A stretch of DNA of 64,000 bases from an uncultured Gemmatimonadales bacterium (GCA_963842945.1 CAWJIM010000002.1:224001-288000); one strand, 5' to 3'. Numbered from the stretch's first letter, positions 15,325 to 46,404 are shown. Program-made: numbers and translations. The notes: a model not told the origin generated them from the letters alone.

Positions 15325-15340
15325 CTGCACTTTGTACCAG
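15325..15340 (-). promoter_or_regulatory. CTG-N10-CAG box 1
   Basis: Minus strand CTGGTACAAAGTGCAG-TTTCGG-N17-CATAGT. Confidence 0.65.
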
Positions 15341-15369
15341 TCCCAGAGCTCGCGATAAGGCGCAGATGC

Positions 15370-15385
15370 CTGTCAGAAATGCCAG
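15370..15385 (+). promoter_or_regulatory. CTG-N10-CAG box 2 (DyP operon)
   Basis: CTGTCAGAAATGCCAG-TTTCCT-N16-TAGCCT. Confidence 0.8.
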
Positions 15386-15482
15386 TTTCCTGGGTGGCAC
15401 CCACTCCTAGCCTCAAGCAGCCGCCCGCACTCGCCACTCTGGCCCCGAGAAATCCTGCCAACGTCACGCACGAGAGGTCCCC

Positions 15483-16076
15483 ATGACGAACACCATGACC
15501 GAGCCAACAACCGACACGACCGAGATCGTCGAAGACTGGACCAAGCCCGCAGCGATGGCGATTCCGAAGGAAGGATTCTTCGAGCTGGAGCAGGGCAGGT
15601 ACGGCCCGATCTATCCGAAGACCCCCGCCTGTTACGGGTTTACCATCATCGCGAAGATCAAGCCAGGACGGAGCAGACCATCCGCGAATACGGCAGCAAG
15701 ATCGAGAAGACCATGCAGGGTCTGCCGGATGGACTCGAGGTGCTCCAGCTGCATTACCTCCGCTGGGTCCTCTTCGACATCGGCAAGGACACCTACTTCA
15801 TGTATCAGGGCATCTTCGACACCGATTTCGACAAGTACACCGAGGACGCGGTGCGCTCTGTTCACCAAGTACGGCATCAACACGGTCTTCGAGAACCTGG
15901 AGGGCTTCCCGACGGACTGGAAGACCAACACGCCGGCGTTCATCCAGTTCGTGCGGGAGCACCAGCGGCCCAGCTTCCTCGAGTACGGCGAGTATCCCTA
16001 CGTGAGCGCGGAGGAGATCAAGAAGGCGCTGCAGCTGAAGGCGGCGTTCTCCGACATGCTGGAGCAGATGCAGTGA
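15483..16076 (+). CDS. Conserved hypothetical DyP-associated protein (two compensating frameshifts)
   Basis: Reassembled ...GFTIIAKIKPG...LHYLRWVLFD...YQGIFDTDFDKYTEDA.ALF...FENLEGFP...FVREHQ; possible alpha/beta ferredoxin-like fold (inference). Confidence 0.75.
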   Translation: MTNTMTEPTTDTTEIVEDWTKPAAMAIPKEGFFELEQGRYGPIYPKTPACYGFTIIAKIKPGRSRPSANTAARSRRPCRVCRMDSRCSSCITSAGSSSTSARTPTSCIRASSTPISTSTPRTRCALFTKYGINTVFENLEGFPTDWKTNTPAFIQFVREHQRPSFLEYGEYPYVSAEEIKKALQLKAAFSDMLEQMQ

Positions 16077-16094
16077 TCGCGCAGCGGGGCAACG

Positions 16095-17417
16095 ATGCTC
16101 GAGCTCGATGATATCCAGCACATCCTGGTCACCCGAACCCCGGCGCTGACCGGGCGGTACGAATTTCTCAGCTTCCGGGACACCGCCGGCGCCCAGGCGT
16201 GGCTGGCCGGGATCCTGGAGAAGATCCGCTCGGCCTCCAGCGTACGGAGCACGGTCGAGAGCGACAACCGCTGGGTGAACGTCGCCTTCACCTGGGAAGG
16301 ACTGCGGGCCCTCGGCGTGGACGAAGCGTCGCTGGCCACGTTCCCCGAGGAATTCAAGCAGGGCATGGTGGCTCGGGCCGAAATGCTGGGCGACACCGGC
16401 GTCAATCACCCCAACTGCTGGGTGGGAGACCTGGCCAGCCCGACCTTCACGCCATCGTGATCCTGTTCGCCCGCACGGCCGCGGAGCACACCCGGTGTGT
16501 GGCGGCTCATGAGGAGCTCCTCGCTGAATCCCCGGCGTGGAGCGGCTCTCCTTCCTGGACCTCGAGGCCACCCCGCCCTTCGATTACGCCCACGATCACT
16601 TCGGCTACCGCGACCGTCTTTCCCAGCCGGTGATGAAGGGAACCGGAGAGGAGCCAACTCCCGGCTCCGGAGCGGCGCTCGAGCCAGGCGAGTTCATCCT
16701 GGGCTACCCCGATGAAAACGGTCCCCCAGCCCAGCAGCCGCAACCCGAGGTGCTGTCCCGGAACGGCAGCTACATGGCCTACCGCCGGCTGGAGGAACAC
16801 GTGGGCAGGTTTCGGGAGTTCCTGCGGGAGCACGGGAAGACGGCCGAGGAGCAGGAGTTCATCGCCGCGAAGCTCATGGGCCGGTGGCGCAGCGGTGCGC
16901 CGCTGGTCCTGGCGCCCGAGAAGGACGATCCGGTGCTCGGCGCCGATATGCAGCGGAACAACGATTTCAACTACAAGAAGATGGACCCGCTGGGCTATGC
17001 CGTTCCACTCGGCTCCCATTGCCGCCGGATGAATCCCCGGGACACGGCCGCCAACATGAACCGGAGGCGGATGATCCGGCGGGGTGCGACCTATGGCCCG
17101 CCTCTGCCGGAAGGCGCGCCTGACGACGGTGTGGAACGGGGAATCGCCGCGTTCGTGATCTGCGCCAGTCTCATCCGACAGTTCGAGTTCGCCCAGAACG
17201 TGTGGATCAACGACAAGAACTTTCACGAGCTCGGGAATGAGCGCGATCCGATCATTGGGACGCAGGATGGAACATTGGAGTACAAGATTCCGAAGCGTCC
17301 GATCCGGAAGCGCATCACCGGTCTCCCTGCATTCACCACCGTTCGGGGGGGGCCTACTTCTTTCTCCCGGGCCTCAAGGCGCTCAGGTATCTGGCGGGCT
17401 TGAGCGATGCGCGCTGA
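16095..17417 (+). CDS. Dyp-type heme peroxidase (frameshifted)
   Basis: HFGYRDRLSQP, GEFILGY, NGSYMAYRRL, AAKLMGRW.SGAPL, proximal SHCRRMNPR, distal RMIRRG, RQFEF, GGAYFFLPG. Confidence 0.9.
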
Positions 17418-17420
17418 GCC

Positions 17421-18328
17421 ATGCGCGCCATCCCCGTCGCGGTGGCCGGTACCTTCATCGCGTTCGGGTGGGCGCAGGCGCAGAACCGGGGCGTCTACCC
17501 GCTGGGCATGAGCGCCATAGGCTCGGGAGTGATGCCGGCCGCCGGGTTCACCTACTCGAACTCGTTCCTGTTCTACTCTCGCGACCGGAGCGTGGATGCC
17601 GACGGCGGAGTGCTGGCGACCGGCAGCAACTCGGTGCTGATGGACATGAATGGCTTCGTGTGGGCCAGCGGGAAGCAGGTTCTCGGGGGTGCGAGGCTGG
17701 CGGCCTCGGCCACTTTGCCGATCGCCAACAACTCGCTGGCTTCGGATGTCAACGGGGCGATCAGCGGCGGCGGCGGATTCGCCGACTCCTACTATCAGCC
17801 GGTGATTCTGGGCTGGGCGACTGAGCGGGCGGAGATCAAGGCGATCTACGGATTTCTGGCTCCCACCGGGCGATTCGAGGCCGGGGAGGCCGATAACGTC
17901 GGATCGGGCTACTGGACCCACGTCGTCGCTTCGGGTCAGACCTTCTATCTGACAGCGGACAAGAGAACGGTCATCTCTGCCTTCCAGATGTACGAGTTTC
18001 ACGGCACTCAGGAGAGCACCGGCATTCGGCCGGGGCAGACCCTGGATCTCGACTATTCGGCCACCCGGTCGTTCCCCCTGCGGGAAGACCTGCAGCTGCA
18101 GCTGGGACTGATCGGGTATGAACAGTGGCAGACCACGGACAAGGCCGGGCCGGCGGTGACCCGGAGCAGGCCGCGGCTCACTACAGCGTCAACGCGCTGG
18201 GCTTCACCGCCAACCTGGGTTTCCCCGCCCGGGAGGTCGGCCTCGGATTCAAGTATTTCAAGGAGTTTTCCAACCGATCGACGTTCCAGGGCCACTCGCT
18301 GCAGATCGCCGCCTCGGTCCACTTCGAC
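17421..18328 (+). CDS. Outer-membrane channel, MetA-pathway/SphA (COG4313-like) family; end approximate
   Basis: Signal peptide, GGFADSYYQPVILGW, APTGRF..NVGSGYWT, C-terminal SVHF. Confidence 0.8.
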
Positions 18329-18362
18329 CGTCGGCCTCAGGCAGACGAGAACGGAGCACAAA

Positions 18363-19383
18363 ATGGATACAGGCAAAGCGGCGAGGACCTACAACCAGGA
18401 TCATGTGCCTCGCAAGTACAAGTCCGGCAAGCGCCGGGTGAGCATCTACTGGACCTGGAGCTATCCGTGGGAAGCGAACCGCGACCCGGCCATGATGGAC
18501 AACCGCTTCTCGACCTTCACCGAGGTTCGCCGGGTGGCCTGGCCCGACGTATGAGACCCGGGAATGGGACGAGCAGGCTTTCCTGCAGGGCATCGCCGGC
18601 ACGCTGGAGCTGTTTCACCGCTCCACCCTGAGCTTTCAGCAGCTCGTAGGCGAAGCCACCGACCATCCCGTCGCCGTGTTCCAGCGGATCGACCAGGCCG
18701 GCTACCGGCAGCCGATCGACGAGCGGATCCTGGCGGACACGCGACACGCTGATGGTCTTCGGGCTGGACCACCTGCTGGCGGAGCAGGAGGCTGCGCCGG
18801 AGGAGATCGCGGCTCTCCGCGAGTGGCTCAAGCGGGAGGGAACCTGTCTCCTGATCGGTCCCCACCACGACGTTGGCTTCGCGGCCGACCTGAAGCAGCG
18901 GCAGATGGAGTACAAGCATCACGGCGACCCGCTGGTCCCCCGGCAGCAGCGGTTCGGCCAGTACACCCGGTCCCTGATGAAGGGGCTGAACGTTCCGGTG
19001 ATGAACCAGTACGGACTGCGTCCCGCCGTGGTGAAAGGCACCAACCAGATCGTGCCGCTGCACACCAATCGGGACCTGGACAAGCCCGGGCCTGCTGCAG
19101 CGATGTCACCACCTTCAACTTTCATCCCCACCTGCCCCATTACGCCCTGACCAACGGCGACACCACGTCGGTGCGGGTCCTGTCCCGCCAGCCGATCGAC
19201 CTGGACCGGCCGCACCCATTTACCGCCGCGGGCAACACCGAGTTCAACTGCTTCATCTGGATGCCGCCCGAGGCCGACCGCGGCGGAGACATCCTGATGG
19301 CCGACTCGACGATCTTCACTACGCTATTCGGCGGCACGGAGAGCCTGGAGAACTTCTGGCGGAACCTCGCCCTGATGAGATGA
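18363..19383 (+). CDS. Conserved hypothetical His-rich cytoplasmic protein (frameshifted)
   Basis: Continuous reassembly ARTYNQ.H.PR..SIYWTWSYPWE..LMVFGLDH..IGPHHDVG..HHGD..FNFHPHLPHY..FWRNL. Confidence 0.75.
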
Positions 19384-19408
19384 ACTGAGCCAGCCACAAA
19401 GCTCCAAC

Positions 19409-19424
19409 CTGTCAGAACTGCCAG
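19409..19424 (+). promoter_or_regulatory. CTG-N10-CAG box 3 (sulfatase operon)
   Basis: CTGTCAGAACTGCCAG-TATCTG-N17-TAGCCT. Confidence 0.8.
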
Positions 19425-19606
19425 TATCTGACCGCCTCCGTCACTCCTAGCCTAGAAGGCGATTGTATTCGCCCGCCACCCTGCTCGAGGGCCTTGCCCG
19501 CGGGACGCTTCCGGCCGCACCCGAAGGCGTACCGGTCAGGGCGGGTACTGGGCGGCACCCACCAGCGTCAGGGAGATCAGCAGGAATCCACTCCGGAGAG
19601 AGGACA

Positions 19607-21981
19607 ATGAGTTCGCAAGAAAGATTCAACGATCGATTCTTCCGATCCCGGATACGCAGCACGTGGGTTTGACGACCTACGACGCGAAGGATCCGGACAC
19701 GAAGTTCCCGCCGATCGAGACGCTGCGGCCGCCCAAGGGCGCGCCCAATGTGCTGGTCATTCTCATCGACGACGTGGGCTTCGGCGCCGCCAGCGCCTTC
19801 GGCGGGCCGTGCCATACGCCCAACTTCGAAAAGCTCGCGGCGGGCGGGTTGAAGTACACGCGCTTCCATACCACGGCGCTGTGCTCGCCCACGCGGCAGG
19901 CGCTGCTCACCGGCCGCAACCATCACTCGGTCGGCATGGGCGGCATCACCGAGATCGCGACCGCTGCTCCCGGCTACAACTCCGTGCTGCCGAACACCAA
20001 GGCGCCGCTGGCGCTGACGCTCAAGCTCAACGGCTATTCGACCGCGCAGTTCGGCAAATGCCACGAGGTGCCGGTCTGGCAGACGAGTCCGGCGGGGCCG
20101 TTCAATGCGTGGCCGACCGGCGGCGGCGGGTTCGAGTACTTCTACGGCTTCATCGGCGGCGAGAACAACCAGTGGGACCCGGCCCTGTATGAAGGCACGA
20201 CGCCGATCGAGCCGCCCAAGACGCCGGCGGAGGGCTATCACCTGACCGAGGATCTGACCGACAAGGCGATCAACTGGGCGCGCCAGCAGAAGGCGCTGAT
20301 GGGCGACAAGCCGTTCTTCATCTACTTCGCGCCGGGCGCCACGCATGCGCCGCATCACGTGCCAAAGGAGTGGATCGACAAGTACAAGGGCAAGTTCGCC
20401 CACGGCTGGGACAAGCAGCGCGAGATCACCTTCAAGCGGCAGAAGGAACTGGGCGTCATTGCGCGCCGATGCCGTGCTCACCCCGCGCCACAAGGAGATC
20501 CCGGCCTGGGATGAGATGGATCCCAAGCTCAAGCCCGTGCTGGAGCGCGAGATGGAGGTGTACGCCGCGTTCATGGAGCACACCGACCATCACGTCGGCC
20601 GGCTGATCGATGCGCTCGGACAGGGCGTGCTCGACGACACGCTCATCTACCTCATCATCGGCGACAACGGCGCGTCGGCCGAGGGCACGCTCCAGGGCGC
20701 CTTCAACGAGATGGCCAACTTCAACGGCATGGCCGCCATCGAGACGCCTGAATTCATGATGTCCAAGCTCGATGAGTTCGGCGGAGAGGGATCCTACGGC
20801 CACTTCGCGGTGGGCTGGGCCTGGGCGATGGACTACCCCCTACCAGTGGACCAAGCAGGTGGCCTCGCACTGGGGCGGCACGCGCAACGGCACCATCGTT
20901 CACTGGCCCAAGGGGATCAAGGAAAAGGGCGGCATGCGCAGCCAGTTCAGCCATGTCATCGACGTCGCGCCCGACGGTGCTGGAGGCGGCGGGCATTCCC
21001 GAGCCGACGATGGTCAACGGCGTGCTGCAGAGCCCGTACGAGGGCACGAGCATGCTGTACAGCTTCAACGACGCCAAGGCGCCCGAGCGGCACGAGACCC
21101 AGTACTTCGAGATGTTCTGCAACCGCGGCATCTACCACAAGGGCTGGAGCGCGGTGACCAAGCACCGCACGCCGTGGATGATGGGCGGAGAAAAAATGCC
21201 GGCCTTCGACGACGACGTCTGGGAGCTCTATGACGGCAGCAAGGACTGGACGCAGTCCAACGACCTGTCGAAGCAGATGCCGGAGAAGCTGCATGAACTG
21301 CAGCGCCTGTGGCTGATCGAAGCGGTCAAGTACAACGTGCTCCCGCTGGATGACCGGCAGATCGAGCGCTTCAACTCCGATCTGGCCGGCCGGCCCGTGC
21401 TGGTCAAGGGCAACTCGCAGACTGCTGTTTGCGGGAATGGGGCGACTTTCCGAGAACAGCGTGGTCAACATCAAGAACAAGTCGTTCGCCGTCACCGCCG
21501 ATCTGGAAGTGCCGGCCAAGGGCGCCGAGGGCGTGATCATCGCCCAGGGCGGCCGGTTCGGCGGCTGGAGCCTGTATGCCAAGGGCGGCAAGGCCAAGTT
21601 CTCTACAACGTGCTGGGCATCAAGTCGTTCGGCATCGAGGCCACCAAGCCCATTCCGGCCGGCAAGACCCAGGTGCGCATGGAGTTCGCCTATGACGGCG
21701 GCGGCATGGGCAAGGGCGGTACCGTCACGCTCTACTGTGACGGCAAGGAAGTCGGCAAGGGCCGGGTCGAGCAGACGCAGGGGTTCATCTTCTCGGCGGA
21801 CGAGACGACCGACATCGGCTACGAGTCCGGCACCACGGTCAGCCCCGACTACACCGCCCACACCAGCAAGTTCAACGGCAAGATCAACTGGGTGCAGATC
21901 GACCTGGGCAAGGACGCCGAGGACGCCGACCACTTCATCGACCACGAGGAACGCATCCGCGTGGCCATGGCGCGGCAGTAG
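19607..21981 (+). CDS. Cys-type arylsulfatase, no signal peptide (several frameshifts)
   Basis: [23 protein letters not shown] (CxPxR), FGKCH, GATHAPH, GDNG, C-terminal LamG-like region. Confidence 0.93.
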
Positions 21982-22015
21982 ATAGAATCGCGAGCGCTCA
22001 CATAAGAAGCCGGCA

Positions 22016-23212
22016 ATGCACAGCACAACCCTCGAGCCATTCGTACGATCATCGAGCATCCGGTCGATTTTGCCCTGGGACTGGGCGGGCCGCTGTATCA
22101 GCTCTTGCGGCGGACCCGCCTCCCCGCGACGCGCTGCAGCTGCTGCGCCGCCGAATCGTCGTGCTCACCCCCCTGGCCTGGGCCCCGCTCCTCGCGCTGT
22201 CCGCGTGGAGGGGCGTGCGTGGGTGGCGTCCCGCTGCCCTTCCTCAAGGACGTAGAGCTCCACGCCCGCCTCCTGGTCGCGTACCGCTGTTCCTCCTCGC
22301 CGAGCTGGTCGGTGCACCGACGCCTGGGCGGCCCGATCGCGGGCAGTTCCTCAACCGCGGCCTCATCCCCGAGTCGGCGCAGAGACATTCGACCGGCCGT
22401 CGCCTCGGCCGTGCGCCTCCGCAATTCGCTCTGGGCCGAGATGCTCGTCGCGCTCGTCTACGTCGTCGGTTTGGGCGTCACCTGGCGGATGTCAGAGATA
22501 GCTCACGACGTGCCCAGCTGGCGCGGCGCGGCCGTGGACGGGATCTGGCGGCCGACACTCGCCGGCTGGTGGCTGGGGCTGGTGAGCCTGCCGCTGTTTC
22601 AGTTCCCCTGCTGCGCTGGTACTTCCGGATCTTCATCTGGGCGCGGTTCCTCTGGCAGGTGTCGCGGATCCACCTGAAGTTCATGCCCACCCACCCGGAC
22701 CATGTGGGCGGCCTGAGTTTCTCGCGGGCGTCAGTCGCTCCGCACGGTCCTGCTGGCGCAGGGGGGGTGCTGGCCGGCTGATCGCCAACCACATCTTCTA
22801 CGCCGGCGCCAACTGCCTCACTTCAAGGTGGAGCTGATCGGTCTGGTGGCCCTGATGCTGTTCGCCGTGCTGGGGCCGCTGCTGGTGTTCAGGCGGCAGC
22901 TCGAAGCGGCTAAGCGGCGAGGCTGTGCGCGAGCACGGCGTGCTGGCGCAGCGCTACGTGCGGGAGTCTGAGCGCAAATGGGTGCGTGGCGGGGCGCCTC
23001 CCGACGAGCCGCTGCTCGGCAGTGCAGACATTCAGTCGCTGGCGGACCTGGGAACAGCTTCGCGTGGTGAAGGAGATGCGGTGGGCGCCTTTCGCGCTGA
23101 CTACCGTCCTCCAACTGGGCGTCACCACGCTGATGCCTGTGGTCCCGCTGATGTTGACCATGATCTCTCCCTGGAGGAGTTGCTCGACCGGCTGCTCAAG
23201 ATCGTGTTCTAG
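22016..23212 (+). CDS. Conserved hypothetical polytopic membrane protein (many frameshifts)
   Basis: Fragments GGPLYQLLRR, LAGWWLGLVSLPLFQF, LRWYFRIFIW, HPDHVGGL, LLGSADIQSLADLG. Confidence 0.65.
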
Positions 23213-23239
23213 CACCTTCTCTCCCTCACCGAATCCACC

Positions 23240-24393: not shown

Positions 24394-24412
24394 CTCAAAA
24401 CGGGCCCTTACT

Positions 24413-24754
24413 TCATTCGCCGGCGTGCCGCTGCCGCAGCTCTGACATGTCACGATCGAGGAAGTAATTGAGGAACGTTCGAATCACTGCCACCGCACCG
24501 AGCCGGGCGACGGCCTCCCACTGATGAGTTATGGAGGTCTCGAGGATGTCGGCGCCGAGCTGGAAGGTGAGTGCCGCAACCAGCCACCGGGCATAGCCGA
24601 GCCACACGTCGCGGCGCTCCGGCCGAGGGCCTCCCGCCAGGAGCAGCCGGACCACGCCGACGATCGCCTCCACCGATCCCGCGAGGACCATCACCAGCGC
24701 GAGGCCGTTCAGGAAGGCGATGGAGATCTCGGTCACATGAATCAGCCAGCTCAT
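24413..24754 (-). CDS. DUF1622 family membrane protein
   Basis: L.FQLGADILET..LGAVAVIRTFLNYFL. Confidence 0.88.
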   Translation of the reverse strand: MSWLIHVTEISIAFLNGLALVMVLAGSVEAIVGVVRLLLAGGPRPERRDVWLGYARWLVAALTFQLGADILETSITHQWEAVARLGAVAVIRTFLNYFLDRDMSELRQRHAGE

Positions 24755-24790
24755 CAGCTTGACGATCCGGAATACCGGCGCAGACTGAAA

Positions 24791-24806
24791 CTGTCAGTTG
24801 TACCAG
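24791..24806 (+). promoter_or_regulatory. CTG-N10-CAG box 4
   Basis: GAAA-CTGTCAGTTGTACCAG-TTTCCG-N17-CATCCT, between divergent genes. Confidence 0.8.
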
Positions 24807-25752: not shown

Positions 25753-25775
25753 GCCCGGCTCCAGCTCTTTGACTT

Positions 25776-28260: not shown

Positions 28261-28269
28261 CTGCGGAGT

Positions 28270-37410: not shown

Positions 37411-37416
37411 GGCGGC

Positions 37417-38229: not shown

Positions 38230-38247
38230 GGCAGGAAACCGTTCCTA

Positions 38248-38985: not shown

Positions 38986-38994
38986 CTCGCTACC

Positions 38995-39681
38995 TCAGAC
39001 GGGCGTCCCTCCGGAACTCGGCTGGGTTCGGCGTGCAGCTGCACTGGGGGGCGCTCCTGCAGCCCGAATACCGCCGCGGCAGCGGCGCCGCCCAAGGAGC
39101 GGGCCTATCAGGTACAACCAGAGCTGTCCGGCCGGTCCGCCGGCAATCAGCGCGTTCACCAGAATCGGTCCGATGCCCACCGCGGGATTGAACGCACCAC
39201 CGCTGATTCCTCCGCCGGCAAAAGCGGCAACCACGATAGTGAATCCGATGGCCAGGCCGTAGAACGAGTTGCCATGGGTCTTGGCGGACGCCGCCGAATT
39301 GAGCACCACCAGAGCGAGCGCAAAGGTGTAGAGGAACTCCACCAGCACGGCTGCGGCCGGGGAGACGTCCGGTCCCGGAGCCGGCGCGAAGGTCTTCCCG
39401 GTGATGATGTAAACGATGAGGGCGGCTGCGACGGCGCCCAGGACCTGGCTGACCATGTACCCGGCCGTCTCGCCGGTCGAAGCCATCTTGCCCCGCAGGT
39501 ATACCGCCAGGGTCACCGCCGGATTGTAGTGCGCACCGGAGACGTGCCCGCCCATGTACACCATCACCATCAGCGATGATCCGATGGCGAGGGGCGCGAG
39601 GGGCGAGCCGCTCAGCACGGTGAGGCCAATCGTCAGCACCAGGAAGAACGTGCCCAGAAACTCCGTGAGATAGTTCTGCAT
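38995..39681 (-). CDS. Aquaporin / MIP family channel (C-terminal frameshift)
   Basis: EFLGTF, SGAHYNPAVT, SGGAFNPA. Confidence 0.92.
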   Translation of the reverse strand: MQNYLTEFLGTFFLVLTIGLTVLSGSPLAPLAIGSSLMVMVYMGGHVSGAHYNPAVTLAVYLRGKMASTGETAGYMVSQVLGAVAAALIVYIITGKTFAPAPGPDVSPAAAVLVEFLYTFALALVVLNSAASAKTHGNSFYGLAIGFTIVVAAFAGGGISGGAFNPAVGIGPILVNALIAGGPAGQLWLYLIGPLLGRRRCRGGIRAAGAPPSAAARRTQPSSGGTPV

Positions 39682-39696
39682 GGTAGGGTCCGGGAG

Positions 39697-40401
39697 TCAG
39701 ATCAGACGACGTTTGACCGCGAACTGCACCAGCTCGGCGCTGGAGTGCAGGGACAGCTGCCGCATGATTCTGTACTTGTGAAAGGCCACGGTTCGGGGAG
39801 TGATCCCCAGTGCCGCCGCCGCCTGCTTCATGGTGCTGCCGCCGGCTACCAGCCGCAGTACTTCCCGCTCCCGGGATGACAGCGAGTCCGCCTCGCACAC
39901 ATCAGCGATCCGCCGCACGGCGGCTGGGGGAGCCGCCGGGCGCCGCACCTGATGGGGATACGCTTCTCCGGCCAGCACGGTGCGGATCGCTTGCAGAAGC
40001 TCGGACGCGGGAGTGGTTTTCAGAATGTAGGCCGAGGCGCCGGACCGGAACGCCTGGGCGGCCAGCTCGGGATCGTCATGCATGGTCAGGACAATGCAAT
40101 GCACCTGGGACAGGCGGCGCCGAATCCGCTGCACGGCCTGCAGCCCGCTGAGCCGGGGCATGCTCACATCGCAGATCACCACGTCGGGCCGGAGCTCGGT
40201 GGCGGCATCCACCAGAGCAGCCCCATCGGTCACCGTGCCCAGCACGGTAAACTCCCGCTCCAGCATCTGCCGCAGCGCATCGAGGAGCAGGCTGTGATCG
40301 TCGGCTAGAAGGAGGCGGGGGCGTTTGATGGGCGATCTGGAGTAACTGCCGGCCCACCGCTCCGGGGTTCCGCTTTGCCACGAAGGGGCAGGTGCACTCA
40401 T
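39697..40401 (-). CDS. NarL family response regulator (REC + LuxR HTH)
   Basis: LADDH, CDVSMP, LSSREREVL..TVAFHKYRIM. Confidence 0.93.
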   Translation of the reverse strand: MSAPAPSWQSGTPERWAGSYSRSPIKRPRLLLADDHSLLLDALRQMLEREFTVLGTVTDGAALVDAATELRPDVVICDVSMPRLSGLQAVQRIRRRLSQVHCIVLTMHDDPELAAQAFRSGASAYILKTTPASELLQAIRTVLAGEAYPHQVRRPAAPPAAVRRIADVCEADSLSSREREVLRLVAGGSTMKQAAAALGITPRTVAFHKYRIMRQLSLHSSAELVQFAVKRRLI

Positions 40402-40495
40402 GCTGAGCTTGCCCTTAATGAAGGAAGCAGTCGCTTGCCTAAGGGTGTGTCGGATGGTCGATAGCCTACGGTAGGGATGCCGCTCTGACCCGGTA

Positions 40496-40508
40496 ACTGG
40501 ACCTTAGA
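40496..40508 (-). promoter_or_regulatory. Motif B copy 1 (upstream of NarL-type regulator operon)
   Basis: Minus strand TCTAAGGTCCAGT, with TACCGT 23 nt downstream. Confidence 0.6.
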
Positions 40509-40517
40509 TTAGGCGGT

Positions 40518-40946
40518 TTAGCCGCCCTCCCGGTCTTCAGTGATCCGTTCCCGACTTTCGGGCCAGGCAGGAACCCTGAATTGACCGGCCAGGGCAGCGT
40601 GGATGGCGGGAATGAGATCGATACCAGCTTGTGACTTGAGGACGTATCCGCGGGCGCCAGCTTCCAGGGCGGCGGCGAGCACCGCCGCGTCCGACAGGAC
40701 GCTGAGCACGACGATGGCCGACGCGGTGTTCTCGGACCGGATCTGCCGGATCGCCTCGATCCCGCCCATCCGCGGCATGGCCAGATCGATGACGACAACA
40801 TTGGGACGAAGCGCCCGGGCCAGCCGGACCGCCTCGAGGCCGTCGGCCGCTTCTCCCGCTATCTCGAACTCGGGATCGAGCAGCCTGCGGATTGCCGCAA
40901 GCAGCGGAGGATGATCGTCGGCAAGCAGAACCCGGAGCCGGGCCAT
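40518..40946 (-). CDS. Stand-alone NarL-type receiver domain protein
   Basis: LADDH, IDLAMP, GYVLK; no HTH. Confidence 0.88.
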   Translation of the reverse strand: MARLRVLLADDHPPLLAAIRRLLDPEFEIAGEAADGLEAVRLARALRPNVVVIDLAMPRMGGIEAIRQIRSENTASAIVVLSVLSDAAVLAAALEAGARGYVLKSQAGIDLIPAIHAALAGQFRVPAWPESRERITEDREGG

Positions 40947-41005
40947 AGGCACGATCCTGGAGGGGCGAAGCTCTGGCACATTAGAGATTGGGAGGTGGGG
41001 GGAAA

Positions 41006-41021
41006 CTGTCAGTTGTGACAG
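41006..41021 (-). promoter_or_regulatory. CTG-N10-CAG box 9
   Basis: CTGTCAGTTGTGACAG near-palindrome; minus strand TTTCCC-N16-TAATGT. Confidence 0.8.
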
Positions 41022-41090
41022 CTTGCAACCTTTCGCCGCGCGGCCTTTGTCTACATACTCAGAGCAACTTCCAAAACAGTGTAGGTAACC

Positions 41091-41741
41091 ATGCCGAATC
41101 CGAGTTCGCTGGTATTCGTGGTCGACGACGATGAATCGCTCCGGCGCAGCCTGGAGCGACTGCTGCGGGTCAGCGGCTACTCGGTCCAGACCTTCTCCTC
41201 TGCCGCGGCGTTTCTGGAGCAGCCGGAGCCGGACTGTCCCAGCTGCTTACTGCTCGACATCCGGATGCCGGAGCTGACCGGGCTCGACCTGCAGCAGGCC
41301 GTCAACCAGGCGCGGCCGGCCTTGTCGGTGATCCTGATGACCGGTTATGCCGACATGGAGAGCTGCATCCTGGGAATGAAAGCCGGGGCTGCCGACTTTC
41401 TCCTGAAACCTTTCGACGACGACCAGCTGCTCCTCGCCGTCGCTACCGGACTCGCCAAAAGCCAGGAGATCCGCCAGTCGCTCGCAGAGTATGAGGAGCT
41501 GCGCCAGCGCTTCGCCCTGCTCACTCCGCGAGAGCGCCAGGTGTTCGAGCTGGTATCGGAAGGATTGTTGAACAAACAGATCGCGGGGCGGCTCGGCACC
41601 AGGGAGGGTACGGTGAAGCTGCACCGGGCCAATCTCATCCGAAAGCTGCAGGCCCGTTCGGTGAGCGATCTGGTGCGCATGGCCGACCGCCTGCGTCAGG
41701 ATGGCGCACAACACCCTCAGCCCGCCCAAGTCTCCGCCTAG
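41091..41741 (+). CDS. FixJ/NodW family response regulator
   Basis: VVDDD, LLDIRMP, DFLLKP, LTPRERQV..GLLNKQIA..TVKLHR. Confidence 0.93.
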   Translation: MPNPSSLVFVVDDDESLRRSLERLLRVSGYSVQTFSSAAAFLEQPEPDCPSCLLLDIRMPELTGLDLQQAVNQARPALSVILMTGYADMESCILGMKAGAADFLLKPFDDDQLLLAVATGLAKSQEIRQSLAEYEELRQRFALLTPRERQVFELVSEGLLNKQIAGRLGTREGTVKLHRANLIRKLQARSVSDLVRMADRLRQDGAQHPQPAQVSA

Positions 41742-41757
41742 CAAGGGAAAAGCCTCG

Positions 41758-41770
41758 ACCAAGGTACAGT
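41758..41770 (+). promoter_or_regulatory. Motif B copy 2
   Basis: ACCAAGGTACAGT, with TAGCTT 24 nt downstream. Confidence 0.6.
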
Positions 41771-41834
41771 GGCTCGCCGGCTGACTGAACCGGTAGCTTG
41801 CACCCATCAACCCACAAGGCGGACGGGCGCGACC

Positions 41835-42284
41835 ATGCAGGGCGTATCAGCGTACCGCCACCAGTCAGCCGAGATGGACCTGCAGCGTACTCATGGCATC
41901 CTGGCAGAGGCTGACGCCGAGTCGCCTCTGATTGTCATCGTAGACGATGACTCCTCCTTCCGAACCGCGATCTCCCGGCTCCTGCGCCTCTGGGGCTTCC
42001 GCATCGAGAGCTTTGGTTCCGCGGAGGAGTTTCTTCAGCACCGCACCGGGGCACACTGCATCATTCTCGATTTGCACCTCGGAGGGATGAGCGGGTTGGA
42101 GCTGCAGACCCGCCTGGCCGAGGATGGCCGGCAGGTTCCGATCGTGTTCGTGACCGCGGTGGAGGATCCGATGGTGCGCCGAAGGGCGCTCGATGCGGGG
42201 GCAGCTGCCTATCTGGAGAAGCCGTTTGACGAGCGCCGGCTGCTGGACGTTCTCTTGAGCGTCATCGACTATCGCCCGGAGTGA
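41835..42284 (+). CDS. Single-domain response regulator (FixJ-type receiver)
   Basis: IVDDD, ILDLHL..MSG, YLEKPF. Confidence 0.88.
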   Translation: MQGVSAYRHQSAEMDLQRTHGILAEADAESPLIVIVDDDSSFRTAISRLLRLWGFRIESFGSAEEFLQHRTGAHCIILDLHLGGMSGLELQTRLAEDGRQVPIVFVTAVEDPMVRRRALDAGAAAYLEKPFDERRLLDVLLSVIDYRPE

Positions 42285-45262
42285 ATCACTGCTGAGTGGA
42301 TCTTGTTGGGGCGTCCGGCCGGATCGAGGGCCAGATGGAAGGTGGCGCCCCCAAATGGATTGTTGACCGCCCAAAGCCGGCCGCCATGAGCGTTGACGAT
42401 AGACCGGCAGATGGCGAGCCCCAGGCCCAGTCCGTTTGCCTTGGTCGTGAAGAAGGCGTCAAAGACCTGGTCGAGCCGCTCCGGAGGAATCCCGGTCCCT
42501 CGATCTTGCACCGTAAGCTCAACCCAACCGTCCGGGGTCATGCTGGTCGAGATGGTCAGCAGCCGGTGTTCCGCTGGTCTCCCCGCAACGGCATCACAGG
42601 CATTGCTGATCAGGTTCAAGATCACCTGCTGCAGCTCCACCCGATCTCCCAGCACCAGCGGCATGACCGGGATGAGCCGGATGTCGGTGGCTACCCTCCG
42701 CCGGATCAGCTCGCTGTGCAGCAGGTCCCTGACCTCTTCGATCACCTCGTTCAGATTCACTTCGGTTGTTCGCATCTCCCCCTTCTTCAGGAGAGCGCGC
42801 AGCCGGCCGATCACCTGACCCGCCCGGCGGTCATCGAACACGATGTCGTCCAGAATGGCGCGGACCTCGACCAGATCGGGAGCGTTTCGGCTCATGATCC
42901 GCTGGGCGGCCCGAGTGTTGGCCAGGATGGCGGCGAGCGGCTGATTCAGCTCATGGGCCAGGGCGCCGGACAGCTCGCCCAGTGAGGCCACCCGGCCCAG
43001 ATGGGCCAGCTCGCGGCGCTGGGCCTCCGCCGCCACTTCGGCCTGCTTCCGTTCAGTCACGTCCCGCACGTTGACGATGAAGCATTGCTCGCCGGCCATT
43101 TCCATGGTGTCGGCGACCAGGAGGACCTGGAGAATTTCTCCGGAGCCGGTTCGCAGCTCCATCTCGAATTCGTGGAGAAATCCCTCAGCTTCGAGCTGCT
43201 GCTGGGCGATGCTGAGCTGGCACTCGTCCACGATCATGTTCAGCTCTTCGCCGGTGCGCCCCACCACGTCCTTCCGGGAAAGCCCGAACATCATCTCCCA
43301 CTTTTCATTCACCTCCACCACCCGATAATCGCCCTGGCGAACGATGGCGATGCCGTGGGGACTGGAATGAAAGGCCTTGCCGAAACGCTCTTCCGAGCTT
43401 CGAAGCGCTTGCTCGGCGGTAATCCGGTCCGCGATCTCCGCCTCGAGCGCCACCACCGCCGCAGACAGGTCGGCGGTGCGATCTACCACCCGCGATTCCA
43501 GCTGTTGCTGGGTATCCCGCAGCTCCTGCTCCACGCGCTTCTGGTCCTCAATGTCGGTACAGGAGCCGTACCAGCGGATGATGGCGCCCGACTCATCGCG
43601 AACCGGATGGGCCCTGGCCAGATGCCAGCGATATTCTCCGGTATTGGCGACTAGAAGCCGGTGCTCGACCTCACACGGTTCCCCGGTGGCCACGGAGTGG
43701 AGCCAGGCGTCCCGGGTCTCTTGCTGGTCCTCGGGATGGGTCATAGAGAGCCAGCTCTGATCCGTAATGACGGACTCAGCGGCCCCGGTCATCTGGTACC
43801 AGCGCTGGTTGAAGGATTCCAGCCGCCCCTCGGCCGTGGCGGTCCACACGATCTGGGGCATGGCGTTCGCCATTTCCCTGAGGCGCCCCTCGCTTTCGCG
43901 CAGCGCCTCCTCCTCCCGCCGCATAGCCTCCGCGTTTTTCTGCTGGGTGATGTCCACGTTTACACCCAGCATTCGCGTCGGCCGCCCGGACCCATCGTAC
44001 AGCGTCTTTCCCTTCCCCAGGATCCAGCGCGGCTCCGAACCGGACTGAATTACCCGAAACTCACACTCGTATGGCCTGCCCTCATCCCGCGCGCCGAGAA
44101 TTGCCGTCTGCACCCGGAGCCGATCCTCCGGGACGATGGCATTTAGGAAAGCACCCAAGGAGACGTCCGGGCCTTCGCCGTATAGGCCCATCATCTGCTT
44201 GGATTTTTCCGACCACCGCCCCGCGTCCTGCCCGATCCGCCACTCCCAGGTGCCGAGCTGCGCCGCGCCCAGAGTCAGGTTGAGCCGTTCCTCGTTCTCC
44301 CGCGACCTTACCTCCATGTCCCGGCGCTCTTCGATCACCGCGGCCAGCATCAGAAGCGGAACGGAGAACACGATCATGAAGAGCTGGATGGTCAGCGCGT
44401 TCTCCGCCGGCGAGCTGGTTAGGAAGGGGCCACGGCCGTGCACCGCTCCCCAGATTGCCCAGGCCGTGACGATCAGGAGGAAGCTGCTGGTTCCCCGGGC
44501 TCCGGCCCGGACGGCCGCCCAGAGGACAAAGGGCAGCGGAACGTACGGGAGAATGGGCGACGTGCTGAAGCCTGCCTGCTCTCCATTGAAGACCAGGGCT
44601 GACGCTAGCAGGAGACCTGCGGTGAGGAGCGCGATCTCCAGCTGACGCGCGCTCGAAGCCAGCCGCAGATCGGCAAAGCCCTCGGTGCTCCAGCTGACGA
44701 TCACCGGCACCAGGGTCAATGACGCGAGCACGTTGGAGAACAGCCGGGTGCGCCAGAGCTCCCAGAAGCCGCTCTCCGCGGCGTGATTGAGCGTGACGAC
44801 GCCCGCATCCAGAAAGCAGGACACGAACGTTCCCACGAACGCGGCCCCAAAAATGAACACGCCTACGTGGTGCGAGCGATCGAAGCGAAGCTCCCCCTTG
44901 ACGAGATGCCGCACGATGGCGGCCCCGATCAGCGCCTCGCTGCAGTTGCTGATGTACCAGCCCAGGACCATTGCGGGAGGAAACCCGAGCGGGAGCTGAA
45001 CGGCGAGGTGGGCGGGAAGTGCGCCGAGCAACACCAGCCACCACGACCGGGTCGGCGTGAGGAGCAGCGCCGCCAGAACGATCGAGTTGGGCGGCCATAG
45101 GGTGGAGATGGGACTGGGCTTGAGGGTCAGCGCAAAGCCGAGCTTGGCGCCGAGATAATACGCCAGGCAGACGAGCAACGCCGCCTTGAGCGCCTTGCGC
45201 TCCGGAAAAGCCGGAGCGTGCAGGGCGATCTTGGGTAGGGTGGTATCGCTGAAGTGACTCAC
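42269..45262 (-). CDS. MASE1-PASx3-HisKA-HATPase sensor kinase (FixL/NodV-like)
   Basis: LWPPN MASE1 region, three PAS/PAC, LAHELNQPL, FFTTK..GLGLGL. Confidence 0.93.
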   Translation of the reverse strand: MSHFSDTTLPKIALHAPAFPERKALKAALLVCLAYYLGAKLGFALTLKPSPISTLWPPNSIVLAALLLTPTRSWWLVLLGALPAHLAVQLPLGFPPAMVLGWYISNCSEALIGAAIVRHLVKGELRFDRSHHVGVFIFGAAFVGTFVSCFLDAGVVTLNHAAESGFWELWRTRLFSNVLASLTLVPVIVSWSTEGFADLRLASSARQLEIALLTAGLLLASALVFNGEQAGFSTSPILPYVPLPFVLWAAVRAGARGTSSFLLIVTAWAIWGAVHGRGPFLTSSPAENALTIQLFMIVFSVPLLMLAAVIEERRDMEVRSRENEERLNLTLGAAQLGTWEWRIGQDAGRWSEKSKQMMGLYGEGPDVSLGAFLNAIVPEDRLRVQTAILGARDEGRPYECEFRVIQSGSEPRWILGKGKTLYDGSGRPTRMLGVNVDITQQKNAEAMRREEEALRESEGRLREMANAMPQIVWTATAEGRLESFNQRWYQMTGAAESVITDQSWLSMTHPEDQQETRDAWLHSVATGEPCEVEHRLLVANTGEYRWHLARAHPVRDESGAIIRWYGSCTDIEDQKRVEQELRDTQQQLESRVVDRTADLSAAVVALEAEIADRITAEQALRSSEERFGKAFHSSPHGIAIVRQGDYRVVEVNEKWEMMFGLSRKDVVGRTGEELNMIVDECQLSIAQQQLEAEGFLHEFEMELRTGSGEILQVLLVADTMEMAGEQCFIVNVRDVTERKQAEVAAEAQRRELAHLGRVASLGELSGALAHELNQPLAAILANTRAAQRIMSRNAPDLVEVRAILDDIVFDDRRAGQVIGRLRALLKKGEMRTTEVNLNEVIEEVRDLLHSELIRRRVATDIRLIPVMPLVLGDRVELQQVILNLISNACDAVAGRPAEHRLLTISTSMTPDGWVELTVQDRGTGIPPERLDQVFDAFFTTKANGLGLGLAICRSIVNAHGGRLWAVNNPFGGATFHLALDPAGRPNKIHSAVIHSGR

Positions 45263-45367
45263 AGCGGATCTGCGGCTCAGCCCGGACCTCTCTCTGGTTG
45301 AACCAAGTATGGGCAGACGTGCCCAAGCTCGCCAGTGAACCAGGCCTTCGGAGCTGAGCTGGCTTAG

Positions 45368-45380
45368 CCTAAAGTGCAGT
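45368..45380 (+). promoter_or_regulatory. Motif B copy 3 (no downstream + strand CDS)
   Basis: CCTAAAGTGCAGT, with TACCAT/CATGTT 22-25 nt downstream. Confidence 0.45.
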
Positions 45381-45598
45381 AATCTGCCGGGGAGACCGGG
45401 CTACCATGTTCTAACTACCCGACTTAGCCCGGGTCGGCGCAGGCTCGCCTCTCATCGGGCGTAATCATCACCGAGTCGGCAACGGACAAAATCGCTGAAC
45501 TCGCCAATGATCGGGATGGCTATTCCGGGATGATCGGGAGAAGCCGCGCGCGGCCGCCGAGGCCCTCAAAAAGCCAGGTGACCAGCCGACTGCTTCAA

Positions 45599-46318
45599 TT
45601 ACTGTCGCGCAGACTTATAGAGATCGAGCCGTTTGTTGACCAGGGCCTCCTCCTGCCGCGCCAGCTCATGGGCCAATTTCCGGTACTTCAGTTGTGACTC
45701 GAGAGTCTGCTGCTCCAGTTGCCGAACGATGACCTCCGAGCTCTCCTTGGAAAGCGGCTTGCCGCCTGCTACCTGGCCATTGCCGGAGCGGGCGAGGGCC
45801 AACTGTTGCTCCAGGTCAATCGACTGCTGCCGGGCGAAGCCGGTGAGGCTTGCCTGACGGGCAGCGTCCAGCTCGGCGTGATCTGCGCTCTCCAGCTGTT
45901 CCGCCCAGCGCTTCTCCCGTTCCAGCGCCTTCTTCTCGGTTTCCAGGCGTCGTTTGTCGGAATCGCGTTTCTCCTTTTTCGCCTGCTCGATTTTTACCTC
46001 GATCTCACGCAGATCGAGTCTCCGTTGGTCCACCAGCGCCTTCGACCGGAATTGGGTCTCCTTGGCACGCGAAAGCCGGGCATCGAACCGTCGGAGATCC
46101 TGGTGTGAAGCCGACAGGGCCTCTTGAAGCTGGGCCTCCGACCGGGTCGGGAGTACGATGGTGCCGGCCTTGGCTTGCGACACGGCGGCGGCAGGGGCCG
46201 AGACTGGGGGCACAGGGGCATATCCCTGGGCCGCAGTTTGGGCGGTGTCTTTACTGGCTTCCTGGGCGCCAAGCCGTGCCGCGACGCCGAACAGCAAGGC
46301 TGCCGCGAGCATGCGCAT
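45599..46318 (-). CDS. Secreted coiled-coil hypothetical protein
   Basis: RBS GGAGG, signal peptide LGA-Q, E/K/R/Q heptads. Confidence 0.75.
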   Translation of the reverse strand: MRMLAAALLFGVAARLGAQEASKDTAQTAAQGYAPVPPVSAPAAAVSQAKAGTIVLPTRSEAQLQEALSASHQDLRRFDARLSRAKETQFRSKALVDQRRLDLREIEVKIEQAKKEKRDSDKRRLETEKKALEREKRWAEQLESADHAELDAARQASLTGFARQQSIDLEQQLALARSGNGQVAGGKPLSKESSEVIVRQLEQQTLESQLKYRKLAHELARQEEALVNKRLDLYKSARQ

Positions 46319-46388
46319 ACGACCTCCGGTGTGTCGGACAGTGAAATGGGGCTGGGTAGACGCTAGGACCGCCGGGGAACAGCGGAAA

Positions 46389-46404
46389 CTGGTATTTCTG
46401 ACAG
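46389..46404 (-). promoter_or_regulatory. CTG-N10-CAG box 10
   Basis: Minus strand CTGTCAGAAATACCAG-TTTCCG-N17-TAGCGT; core identical to box 8. Confidence 0.82.

Follow-up and report, generated by a model that had tools for sequence, protein, structure and literature searches.

Eleven Promoters with a 16-Base Palindrome at Fixed Spacing: a 31-kb Accessory Island in a Soil Gemmatimonadota Bacterium

The Gene Island and Its Promoters

The window analysed here is a 64,000-nt stretch of an uncultured Gemmatimonadales bacterium (GCA_963842945.1 CAWJIM010000002.1:224001-288000). It contains an accessory gene island of 31 kb, between positions 15325 and 46404, where a 16-base palindrome stands at fixed spacing ahead of each of eleven promoters. 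An initial sequence-only reading had placed ten such 16-mers at 15325, 15370, 19409, 24791, 27110, 28956, 28995, 36186, 41006 and 46389. All of these coordinates were verified, together with their position between called genes (10 of 10), the identity of two pairs (27110 with 28956, and 36186 with 46389) and the absence of further copies outside 15-47 kb of the 64-kb window. The sites of this proposed "ten-site regulon" are thus real, but the count was incomplete. There are eleven promoters, since the box at 24791, with TTTC on both sides, faces two divergent genes, and a candidate site lies on another contig.

Promoter 1 (15296-15340, minus strand) has the weakest box (15325-15340; CTGGTACAAAGTGCAG on the minus strand), followed by TTTCGG at 15319-15324 and the -10 hexamer CATAGT at 15296-15301. 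Its targets are a small lipoprotein-like gene, a p168-family gene and a HdeD/DUF308-like gene. Promoter 2 (15370-15413, plus strand) consists of a box at 15370-15385, TTTCCT at 15386-15391, a 16-nt spacer and the -10 TAGCCT at 15408-15413. It precedes, from 15483 to ~19383, a 197-aa uncharacterised gene, a DyP peroxidase, a Phenol_MetA_deg outer-membrane channel and a 361-aa uncharacterised homologue. Promoter 3 (19409-19453, plus strand) combines a box at 19409-19424 with TATCTG, a 17-nt spacer and the -10 TAGCCT at 19448-19453, ahead of a sulfatase (its frame broken here, intact with 790 aa in the relative G087), a 420-aa uncharacterised homologue and a small Omp85-like barrel.

Promoters 4 and 5 (24762-24835, both strands) share the single box at 24791-24806, with TTTC on each side; in G087, each of them has a box to itself. 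On the minus side, promoter 4 reads TTTCAG and has its -10, GATCGT, at 24762-24767, 7 nt ahead of the ATG of a DUF1622 gene at 24754, whose transcript is predicted to be leaderless. On the plus side, promoter 5 (TTTCCG; -10 CATCCT at 24830-24835) faces a secreted 288-aa uncharacterised homologue. Promoter 6 (27081-27125, minus strand; box 27110-27125, TTACCC, -10 TACCCT at 27081-27086) precedes an OMP beta-barrel (26343-27023) and a glycine-zipper protein, and promoter 7 (28927-28971, minus strand; box 28956-28971, TTTCCT, -10 TAGCGT at 28927-28932) a DUF4136-like lipoprotein (27982-28875) and an uncharacterised gene (27138-28124).

Facing the other way, promoter 8 (28995-29040, plus strand; box 28995-29010, TTTCGG, 18-nt spacer, -10 CATAGT at 29035-29040) is followed, up to ~33372, by a p168-family periplasmic protein (29071-29538), an FGE-sulfatase-family enzyme, a DUF3943 protein and a BASS/SBF transporter. 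In the protein atlas, the 29071-29538 protein falls near unnamed clusters at 0.94-0.95 and LTXXQ/CpxP-like clusters at 0.83-0.85, which are leads only. The target of promoter 9 (36157-36201, minus strand; box 36186-36201, TTTCTG, TAAATC at the -10 position, 36157-36162) is a mechanosensitive channel of the MscK/MscS type (33349-36119), whose gene is broken up by frame errors here and encodes 923 aa in G087. Promoter 11 (46360-46404, minus strand; box 46389-46404, TTTCCG, -10 TAGCGT at 46360-46365) precedes a secreted coiled-coil protein (45599-46318).

The genes named earlier as members of the regulon (the DyP operon, the sulfatase, the FGE, outer-membrane proteins and the MscS-type channel) do sit behind boxes. 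The gene content also fits the idea of one envelope programme, which the regulator at 39697-40401 would co-activate. For ten uncharacterised targets, a Pfam search at E-values up to 1 gave nothing usable.

Regulators Encoded on the Island

Promoter 10 (40978-41021, minus strand; box 41006-41021, TTTCCC, 16-nt spacer, -10 TAATGT at 40978-40983) serves the regulator operon, 36406-40947 on the minus strand. This operon comprises the stand-alone receiver REC1 (40518 to ~40947), the NarL-family regulator RR1 (39697-40401; Response_reg 3.9e-27, GerE 8.6e-18), an aquaporin (38995-39681), an OMP barrel (38248-38985), the membrane-anchored HisKA_3 kinase HK2 (37417-38229; HisKA_3 and HATPase_c, no sensor domain) and an Omp85-like barrel (36406-37410). 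The earlier assignment of RR1 to the NarL family holds, its closest solved relative being NarL (8e-26). RR1 shares a box-driven operon with a HisKA_3 kinase. The alignment of RR1 with NarL is full-length, with the acidic pocket, the phospho-acceptor Asp, the Thr and Lys positions and the GerE helix-turn-helix all present.

A second signalling module (41091-45262, both strands), with no box of its own facing it, contains the FixJ/StyR-type (GerE) regulator RR2 (41091-41741, plus strand), the receiver REC2 (41769-42284, plus strand) and the MASE1-PAS-HisKA kinase HK1 (42269-45262, minus strand). The -35-like sequence TTGCAA adjoins the 41006 box; when it was considered as an RR2 promoter, no convincing -10 was seen by eye at 16-18 nt across genomes.

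Enrichment and Layout of the Box

As had been described, the box is dyadic, pairing 7-bp half-sites across a 2-bp gap (7-2-7; consensus CTGTCAG-AA-CTGACAG). With a tolerance of 3 mismatches, the specific consensus CTGTCAGAACTGACAG yields 11 strand matches where 0.40 ± 0.70 are expected, and none of 100 shuffles attains 11. These matches correspond to nine of the ten box places; the weaker tenth box (15325) exceeds 3 mismatches and is kept, with the same flanks, in the contig C7 and in G087 and G105. The loose pattern CTG-N10-CAG is not enriched (25 seen, 25.48 expected; 58 of 100 shuffles reach 25). Measured against random DNA, a comparison named earlier as a possible refutation, the specific consensus lies well above shuffles, with the loose pattern alone at chance level.

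The layout statistics cover 75 oriented sites in 11 genomes. Box positions are near-invariant across these sites, dyad pairing is found at positions 1-4, 6, 11 and 14-16, and the half-site reads CTG[T/G][C/A/T]A[G/C]. The arrangement is rigid: the 16-bp dyad occupies positions 1-16, TTTC positions 17-20 and a TAnnnT-type -10 positions 40-45. The central AA is oriented to the promoter in 71-72 of the 75 sites, and the -35 position begins with TT in 71-72 as well. TTTC at the -35 position is conserved like the box itself, although it belonged to the search matrix used for other genomes. Positions 40, 41 and 45 lay outside that matrix, with T40 in 51, A41 in 62 and T45 in 61 of the 75 sites. An exact TAnnnT follows a 17-nt spacer at 45 sites, a 16-nt spacer at three and a 15-nt spacer at one, and is absent at the other 26. 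Within the window, the gene-facing TTTC was verified at eight of ten boxes (TATC at 19409 and TTAC at 27110), and a YAnnnT lies 16-18 nt past the -35-position hexamer at nine of ten sites, the exception being TAAATC at 36186.

The box had been placed near -42, abutting the -35. The abutment stands; the centre lies 31.5 bp before the -10, and a transcription start 7 nt downstream of the -10 would put it at about -43.5.

When the whole assembly was scanned with a 22-nt matrix, the 18 top matches all fell in 15-47 kb of the window or on contig C7, a second copy that is 88.1% identical to window positions 11061-34569. The next-best match is an intergenic candidate at C24:463069. In two relatives, the 46389 target has orthologues that are encoded elsewhere than on the island.

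Promoter Strength and Probable Activator Dependence

The -35 element of this genome is canonical: across 1,773 upstream regions, TTGACA placed 17 nt ahead of TAnnnT is enriched 68-fold. This makes TTTCCN a poor -35. In a sigma-70 consensus scan of 14500-30000, no box promoter passed, and the single match was unrelated to the boxes. A poor -35 combined with this failed scan is a signature of activator dependence. A simple weak -35 does not, however, explain why TTTC should be as conserved as the box.

The same features bear on the opposite proposal, that the dyad is the operator of a repressor (RR1 or another protein) shutting the island promoters, which we consider quite improbable. A dyad touching the -35 could block the polymerase, and NarL-family proteins can repress. 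However, the -35 position starts with TT yet otherwise departs from the TTGACA of the genome, so that the promoters look too weak to need repression, and the fixed distance to the -10, together with the promoter-oriented central AA, fits a stereospecific contact with the polymerase. An operator more commonly lies across the -35/-10 or the start site, and its position varies.

Metatranscriptome data came from three runs of one study, two of which contained ~7% of the sampled words, the third being added from the same study. They yielded only short assembled contigs, of 90-99% likeness, for parts of 19.3-29.3 kb. One 151-nt contig spans the 27110 box; such contigs cannot show starts, strand or level.

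Recurrence in Related Genomes

At least five copies of the box, always clustered, occur in 15 of 103 genomes of the genus, against 0-3 per genome for a reversed-pattern control. In the look at homologous loci proposed earlier, box, promoter layout and downstream gene families recur in these 15 of 103 genomes. Even at a protein identity of only ~60% between genomes, the layout ahead of these families is unchanged, and orthologous targets across clades are also preceded by a box.

This conservation leaves the idea that the repeats are non-regulatory, either mobile-element remnants or an assembly artefact, hardly credible. Such remnants might be clustered, as the copies are, and might include identical pairs, of which there are two; but the shared stretch is just 16-22 nt long with differing flanks, all copies are intergenic and oriented to gene starts with a -10 at fixed distance, and they are kept before orthologous genes at ~60% protein identity. 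Scans of the window for tRNA genes and Rfam families found nothing, and without tRNA genes the window has no tRNA-type integration mark.

The box is tied to the regulator operon. All 12 of the box-carrying loci inspected, 11 from the genus and one from G357, have it ahead of the REC1-RR1-...-HK2 operon, and the REC1-RR1 operon with its upstream box is found in 10 of 10 aligned genomes of genus g1. RR1 orthologues (at least 60% identity) occur in exactly the 15 box-carrying genomes, against at most 44% identity in the other genomes of the genus. G002, a 76% complete genome, has two good boxes, and an RR1 orthologue was not found there.

RR2 orthologues (at least 64% identity) are found in the same 15 genomes, and RR2, REC2 and HK1 match box occurrence within the genus exactly as well as RR1. 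Such counts reflect linkage among island genes and related genomes that are not independent; co-occurrence within the genus cannot separate RR1 from RR2, because both are on the island. It is conceivable, though unlikely, that RR2, fed by HK1, binds the boxes, with RR1 as one of its targets in a cascade or with both proteins sharing the box. RR2 belongs to the same GerE helix-turn-helix class and always lies divergent from the boxed REC1-RR1 promoter, or within ~0.7 kb of it. It also has no TTTC-type box promoter of its own, as would befit a master regulator without autoregulation. On the other hand, genus genomes without boxes hold RR2 relatives up to 53% identical, and StyR/TodT-type boxes presumably differ from the island box.

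The evidence that favours RR1 comes from five genomes of two other genera, g36 (G357, G644, G617, G582) and g30 (G758), in which boxes accompany RR1-like proteins 56-60% identical to RR1. Their box clusters are smaller and are linked to genes for RR1-like proteins and HisKA_3 kinases. The clusters of G357 and G644 each keep to one strand, fit within ~10 kb and have HK2-like and RR1-like genes at their end; a box precedes REC1 in both, and in G357 none lies directly upstream of HK2-RR1. The best RR2 matches in these two genera reach 49-51%, the level of paralogues, and lie 75-85 kb away or on another contig. As the boxes of g36 and g30 come with RR1/HK2-like genes while RR2 is represented only at paralogue level and unlinked, RR1 is favoured over RR2.

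A reader encoded away from the island could be LexA, an AHL-binding LuxR-type receptor, another of the 13 GerE proteins, or a sigma factor that takes CAGTTTC as its -35; taken together, these are very improbable. An unlinked core factor would not explain why boxes occur only where the island regulators exist. For LexA, three of the ten boxes fit CTGT-N8-ACAG, and CTG-N10-CAG appears in print as a LexA box. LexA is ruled out, since the best 16-mers upstream of lexA and recA score -1.6 and 3.6, against ~20 or more for real boxes under the same 16-position matrix; CTG-N10-CAG was not found upstream of either gene, and the regulon is without repair genes. The likeness of the box to lux/las/tra boxes at the letter level would suit a LuxR-type reader. 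Receptors of the AHL type are ruled out, as the Autoind_bind domain (PF03472) was not found in the 86.9%-complete assembly, with a positive E. coli control. The unusual conservation of TTTC and a 300-aa sigma-70-family gene at 1404-2309 might speak for an alternative sigma factor, but the element is a dyad, its -10 is TAnnnT-type and the island has no sigma gene. This candidate was rejected, the sigma-region matches of the island being weak cross-hits of GerE domains.

Proposed Mechanism

Phosphorylated RR1 is probably the binder of the boxes and would activate the eleven promoters that lack a proper -35. NarL, LuxR and TraR recruit RNA polymerase from such a position. In the proposed mechanism, an RR1 dimer, phosphorylated by the co-operonic HK2, would bind the dyad centred near -43.5 and, by touching either sigma region 4 or the alpha subunit, bring RNA polymerase to the promoter. 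The box in front of the REC1/RR1/HK2 operon would provide positive autoregulation, with REC1 as a likely phosphate sink. The output would be ~30 genes, mainly for exported or membrane proteins, including outer-membrane barrels, lipoproteins, the MscK-type channel, the aquaporin and the BASS transporter, as well as the HdeD-like protein, the DyP peroxidase, and the sulfatase with the FGE-family enzyme.

A more speculative proposal, unlikely as a whole, makes the island a self-contained programme with which dry-soil Gemmatimonadota meet water and envelope stress. When the soil is rewetted, the anchor-only HK2, and possibly the MASE1 kinase via RR2, would respond to membrane tension or to damage of the envelope. 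RR1 would then turn on the MscK-type channel as a release valve, the aquaporin and CpxP-like periplasmic proteins, together with new outer-membrane barrels and oxidative or sulfate-ester enzymes. The promoter element would be composite, a dyad plus an obligatory TTTC in place of the normal -35, and the regulator and sigma region 4 would read this TTTC together. If true, this joint reading would make the promoters strictly activator-gated, a class II variant that was not found in the literature searched.

Significance

Gemmatimonadota are abundant in soils and almost uncultured, and no description of a regulon for this phylum was found in the literature searched. The box offers a precise handle: a 20-nt element, few candidate regulators and ~30 target genes, many of them uncharacterised. 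The module recurs in at least three genera. With the box as a guide, envelope genes under common control could be annotated in metagenome bins, and a reporter of the inducing signal could be built in a heterologous host.

Comparison with Known Systems

The island box is likely a 7-2-7 activator site of the NarL family near -43.5, in an arrangement ordinary for that family, and hence a familiar type of switch in a little-studied phylum. A single NarL 7-2-7 site at -44.5 (ogt1052) suffices for activation in E. coli (PMC9314961), the NarL sites of napF and yeaR lie at about -40 to -49 (PMC9314961, PMC4549865) and the lux box is centred at -42.5 (PMC3376562). The island box, at ~-43.5 from a predicted start, would fall between the lux box and the -44.5 NarL site.

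As in E. coli NarL, 7-bp inverted half-sites are separated by a 2-bp gap and centred ~32 bp before the -10, and a regulator with a receiver and a GerE helix-turn-helix is paired with a HisKA_3 kinase. However, NarL reads the heptamer TACYYMT; the island half-site, CTGTCAG, is unlike it, so the specificity of NarL is not transferable, and the recognition-helix residues of RR1 differ in the alignment. HK2 has a membrane anchor only, with no periplasmic sensor, and the regulon is a compact accessory island instead of a set of respiratory genes. To our knowledge, a conserved TTTC and an oriented central AA have no counterpart at NarL sites.

The lux-type boxes of LuxR, TraR and LasR share the outer CTG...CAG dyad, the helix-turn-helix class and, as predicted for the island box, a class II-like overlap with the -35; their centre (-42.5) is one base off the inferred -43.5. 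They span 18-20 bp, compared with 16 bp here, and the candidate binders on the island are phosphorylation-controlled response regulators in an assembly where no autoinducer-binding domain was found. The LexA SOS box of Gammaproteobacteria, CTGT-N8-ACAG, has the same outer CTG/CAG triplets and 16-bp span; the island box, by contrast, lies upstream of the -35 and not over the promoter.

At the level of the regulon, the island resembles the DosR/DevR system and its Dev boxes, with a resident NarL/FixJ-family regulator, a box before most transcription units and, as proposed here, an autoregulated operon. VirG and its vir boxes are another case of an island-wide regulon with a resident two-component master regulator. 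The island differs from both in its box sequence, in its gene content, with genes for the envelope and channels where those systems have genes for dormancy, low oxygen or virulence, and in carrying two kinase-regulator modules and two stand-alone receivers side by side.

Occurrence of the box and its promoter layout

The ten intergenic 16-mers of the sequence-only reading, 7-2-7 inverted repeats starting at 15325, 15370, 19409, 24791, 27110, 28956, 28995, 36186, 41006 and 46389, were all found where they had been placed. Their excess over random DNA depends on how the motif is written. The loose pattern CTG-N10-CAG occurs at chance level in the window (25 matches against 25.48 expected), whereas the specific consensus CTGTCAGAACTGACAG yields 11 strand matches when up to 3 mismatches are allowed, against 0.40 ± 0.70 expected, a number reached in 0 of 100 shuffles. 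These 11 matches cover nine of the ten sites. The site at 15325 is a weaker variant outside 3 mismatches, and it is kept, with unchanged flanks, in contig C7 of the same assembly and in the related genomes G087 and G105. A mobile repeat as the origin of the boxes was rejected, since the copies share only about 20 nt and every one of them displays the promoter layout.

This layout, as originally described, holds when the boxes are oriented to the nearest gene: TTTC follows on the gene-facing side at 8 of the 10 sites (TATC and TTAC at the remaining two), and a YAnnnT hexamer appears after a 16–18 nt spacer at nine, the exception being 36186 with TAAATC. Next, 30–100 nt further along, come the ribosome-binding site and start codon. 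Because box 24791 is flanked by TTTC on either side and has a divergent gene in each direction, the ten boxes amount to eleven promoters. The start of the DUF1622 gene (window 24754–24767) is located 7 nt after the predicted -10, GATCGT, in a layout identical in G087 and G105, and a leaderless transcript is predicted for it.

A conservation profile was built from 75 oriented sites collected from 11 genomes. Positions 1–4, 6, 8–9, 11 and 14–20 are near-invariant, and the central AA is directed toward the promoter in 71–72 of the 75 sites. The -10 element is visible at positions that did not form part of the search matrix (T40 in 51/75, A41 in 62/75 and T45 in 61/75). An exact TAnnnT is found after a 17-nt spacer in 45 sites, after 16 nt in 3 and after 15 nt in 1, and is absent from 26.

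An additional element, GTTGCAAG (TGGCAAG in G082), adjoins the distal side of the box of the REC1 operon (window 41022–41029; REC1 is a stand-alone receiver) in 10/10 aligned genomes of the genus. It is absent from two genomes of another genus, g36, both of which lack the regulator RR2 and the kinase HK1. It may be the -35 of a divergent promoter, driving RR2 or, in G008, a p168-like gene (p168 being a family of small periplasmic proteins), or the site of a second factor; no clear -10 was seen for such a promoter.

Predicted activator geometry of the box promoters

The promoters of this genome are otherwise canonical. Among 1,773 upstream regions, the strongest enrichment 17 nt before TAnnnT is that of TTGACA among hexamers (68-fold) and of TTGA (13-fold) and TTGC (5.6-fold) among 4-mers. 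The box promoters have TTTCCN at the -35 position, and a scan of 14500–30000 for the sigma-70 consensus picked out none of those lying there; its one hit is unrelated to the boxes. The centre of the box lies 31.5 bp before the -10 and would be at -43.5, assuming a start 7 nt after the -10. This value falls between the -42.5 given for the lux box (PMC3376562) and the -44.5 of a single NarL 7-2-7 site described as sufficient for activation (PMC9314961); 7-2-7 sites at about -40 to -49 are reported for napF and yeaR (PMC4549865). The box promoters combine a weak -35 with a dyad that touches this position and stands at a constant distance from the -10, an arrangement consistent with class II-type activation.

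Distribution in the assembly

The assembly, a soil bin of 24 contigs (87% complete, 6% contamination), was scanned with a 22-nt matrix derived from these ten boxes. The 18 best matches are confined to window 15–47 kb and to C7, a contig of 23.4 kb colinear with window 11061–34569 at 88.1% identity, seven boxes included. C7 could be a second copy that arose by duplication of a large segment; a related strain binned together is the likelier alternative, as the bin has 6% contamination. The best match beyond the island and C7 is intergenic (C24:463069–463084; CTGTCAGTTGTGCCAG, then TTGCCG), upstream of a signal-peptide gene. Its spacing to the -10 differs from that of the island boxes, and the gene may belong to the regulon without being part of the island. 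The remaining weak matches in the assembly are inside coding sequence or have no promoter layout.

Many genes of the window are split or truncated here and form one intact frame in relatives: aldehyde dehydrogenase, DyP, sulfatase, an MscS-type channel, and TamA-like and Mg-chelatase-like genes (window 2443–3453, 16095–17403, 19663–21981, 33349–36119, 51357–53517 and 56910–57557). The first four are intact in G087. The broken frames fit single-base assembly errors.

Conservation across genomes

At least five box matches with up to 2 mismatches were found in 15 of the 103 genomes of the home genus, the source genome among them (the unpublished genome G047 is counted in these genus tallies only). 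The matches in these 15 genomes are always clustered, over a span of about 12–45 kb, and a reversed-pattern control gave 0–3 matches per genome across the 103. Among 401 genomes drawn from the class (151 genera), only those of the home genus have multiple copies when up to 1 mismatch is allowed.

In clades whose proteins share only 55–70% identity, boxes stand before the same set of gene families: the REC1-RR1-(aquaporin)-OMP-HK2-Omp85-like operon, a DUF4136 lipoprotein, an OMP barrel, an FGE-family enzyme, an MscK-type channel, a small lipoprotein and DUF1622. On comparative sequence grounds, this conservation is a phylogenetic footprint of what appears to be a functional promoter element.

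Many genomes of the genus, mostly those without the island, have one copy of a sequence related to the box, CTGCAAGAA(T/A)TAGCAGTTTC, which G055 and G015 also carry (examples are G095:C10:652936, G017:C72:17, G055:C67:11438 and G077:C186:75). A core RR1 paralogue, represented by matches of 41–44% identity, may be what binds it.

Candidate regulators for the box

The sequence-only reading assigned the boxes to the NarL-type regulator at 39697–40401. The island encodes two GerE-type response regulators. That protein, RR1, is NarL-like (closest solved structure NarL, 8e-26, with the receiver residues aligned), and its gene is inside a boxed operon, behind REC1, which is of the NarL type. Downstream in the same operon, HK2 (37417–38229) is a HisKA_3 kinase that lacks a sensor domain and has only one membrane helix, at its N-terminus; about 50 residues precede its dimerisation domain, and its input may depend on partner proteins. 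The HK2 gene is flanked by genes for an OMP and an Omp85-like protein, and an aquaporin gene is two genes upstream. The second regulator, RR2 (41091–41741), is StyR/FixJ-like (StyR at 3e-50), is followed by the FixJ-type receiver REC2 and faces the MASE1-PAS-HisKA kinase HK1.

Within the genus, co-occurrence cannot separate the two candidates because both track the same 15 box-rich genomes: RR1 orthologues have at least 60% identity in exactly these genomes and at most 44% in the others, and RR2 orthologues at least 64% there and at most 53% elsewhere. Other genera are more informative. A family-wide search of 401 genomes detected RR1-like proteins (56–60% identity) in g36 (5/5 drawn) and in G758 of genus g30. 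Boxes are present in each of the five carriers tested: G357, G644, G617, G582 and G758, the last of which has nine. The clusters of G357 and G644 each occupy one strand within about 10 kb. They open with a box and REC1 and continue with a box and a DUF2780 gene, the latter identified only in G357. Next come homologues of DUF1622, sulfatase, BASS transporter and p168, joined in G357 by a HAD hydrolase, and the HK2-like and RR1-like genes close the cluster. The best RR2 match in these two genomes has 49–51% identity and lies 75–85 kb away or on another contig. Here the boxes accompany linked HK2- and RR1-like genes where the RR2 match is weak and unlinked, which, for two extra genera and at moderate identities, favours RR1 with HK2 over RR2 as the probable reader of the box. 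No box directly precedes HK2-RR1 in G357, and G002, a 76% complete genome, has two good boxes and no RR1 orthologue that could be found.

LexA, raised at the outset as a reader that would displace the local regulator, was excluded: neither lexA nor recA has a box, and the regulon contains no repair genes. A LuxR of the AHL type was also rejected, as no autoinducer-binding domain was found in the 87% complete assembly.

Predicted targets of the regulon

The targets comprise several beta-barrels (including two small Omp85-like proteins and a Phenol_MetA_deg channel), lipoproteins, a glycine-zipper protein, an HdeD-like membrane protein, the MscK-type mechanosensitive channel, aquaporin, the BASS transporter, DyP peroxidase, the sulfatase with an FGE-family enzyme, and a secreted coiled-coil protein. 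They also include a pair of small periplasmic paralogues, for which no Pfam family was found and whose closest named clusters in the protein atlas are LTXXQ/CpxP-like (0.83–0.85, a lead only). These paralogues (window 14409–14901 and 29070–29561) are box-driven, on opposite strands and about 79% identical in DNA; in G008, a third member of the family is divergent from the REC1 box. The proposed envelope programme fits the gene content in that most targets are exported or membrane proteins, and the set may reasonably be labelled an envelope or osmotic programme. The regulon, while compact, is not confined strictly to a single block, since boxed orthologues of the 46389 target are on other contigs in G087 and G105.

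Comparison with known boxes

The element was not described among the literature matches listed: one group of these has no paper on a Gemmatimonadota regulon, and the papers of the other, judged by titles and abstracts, deal with LexA-type boxes. The box is not an SOS box. It resembles a lux-type box, but with no AHL receptor found in the assembly it does not qualify as a quorum-sensing box. It would work like a NarL 7-2-7 activator site, but its half-site differs, so it is not NarL's own box. Two small oddities stand out, the obligatory TTTC and the promoter-oriented central AA. The finding is sound, and the box adds to a known, NarL-family type of site.
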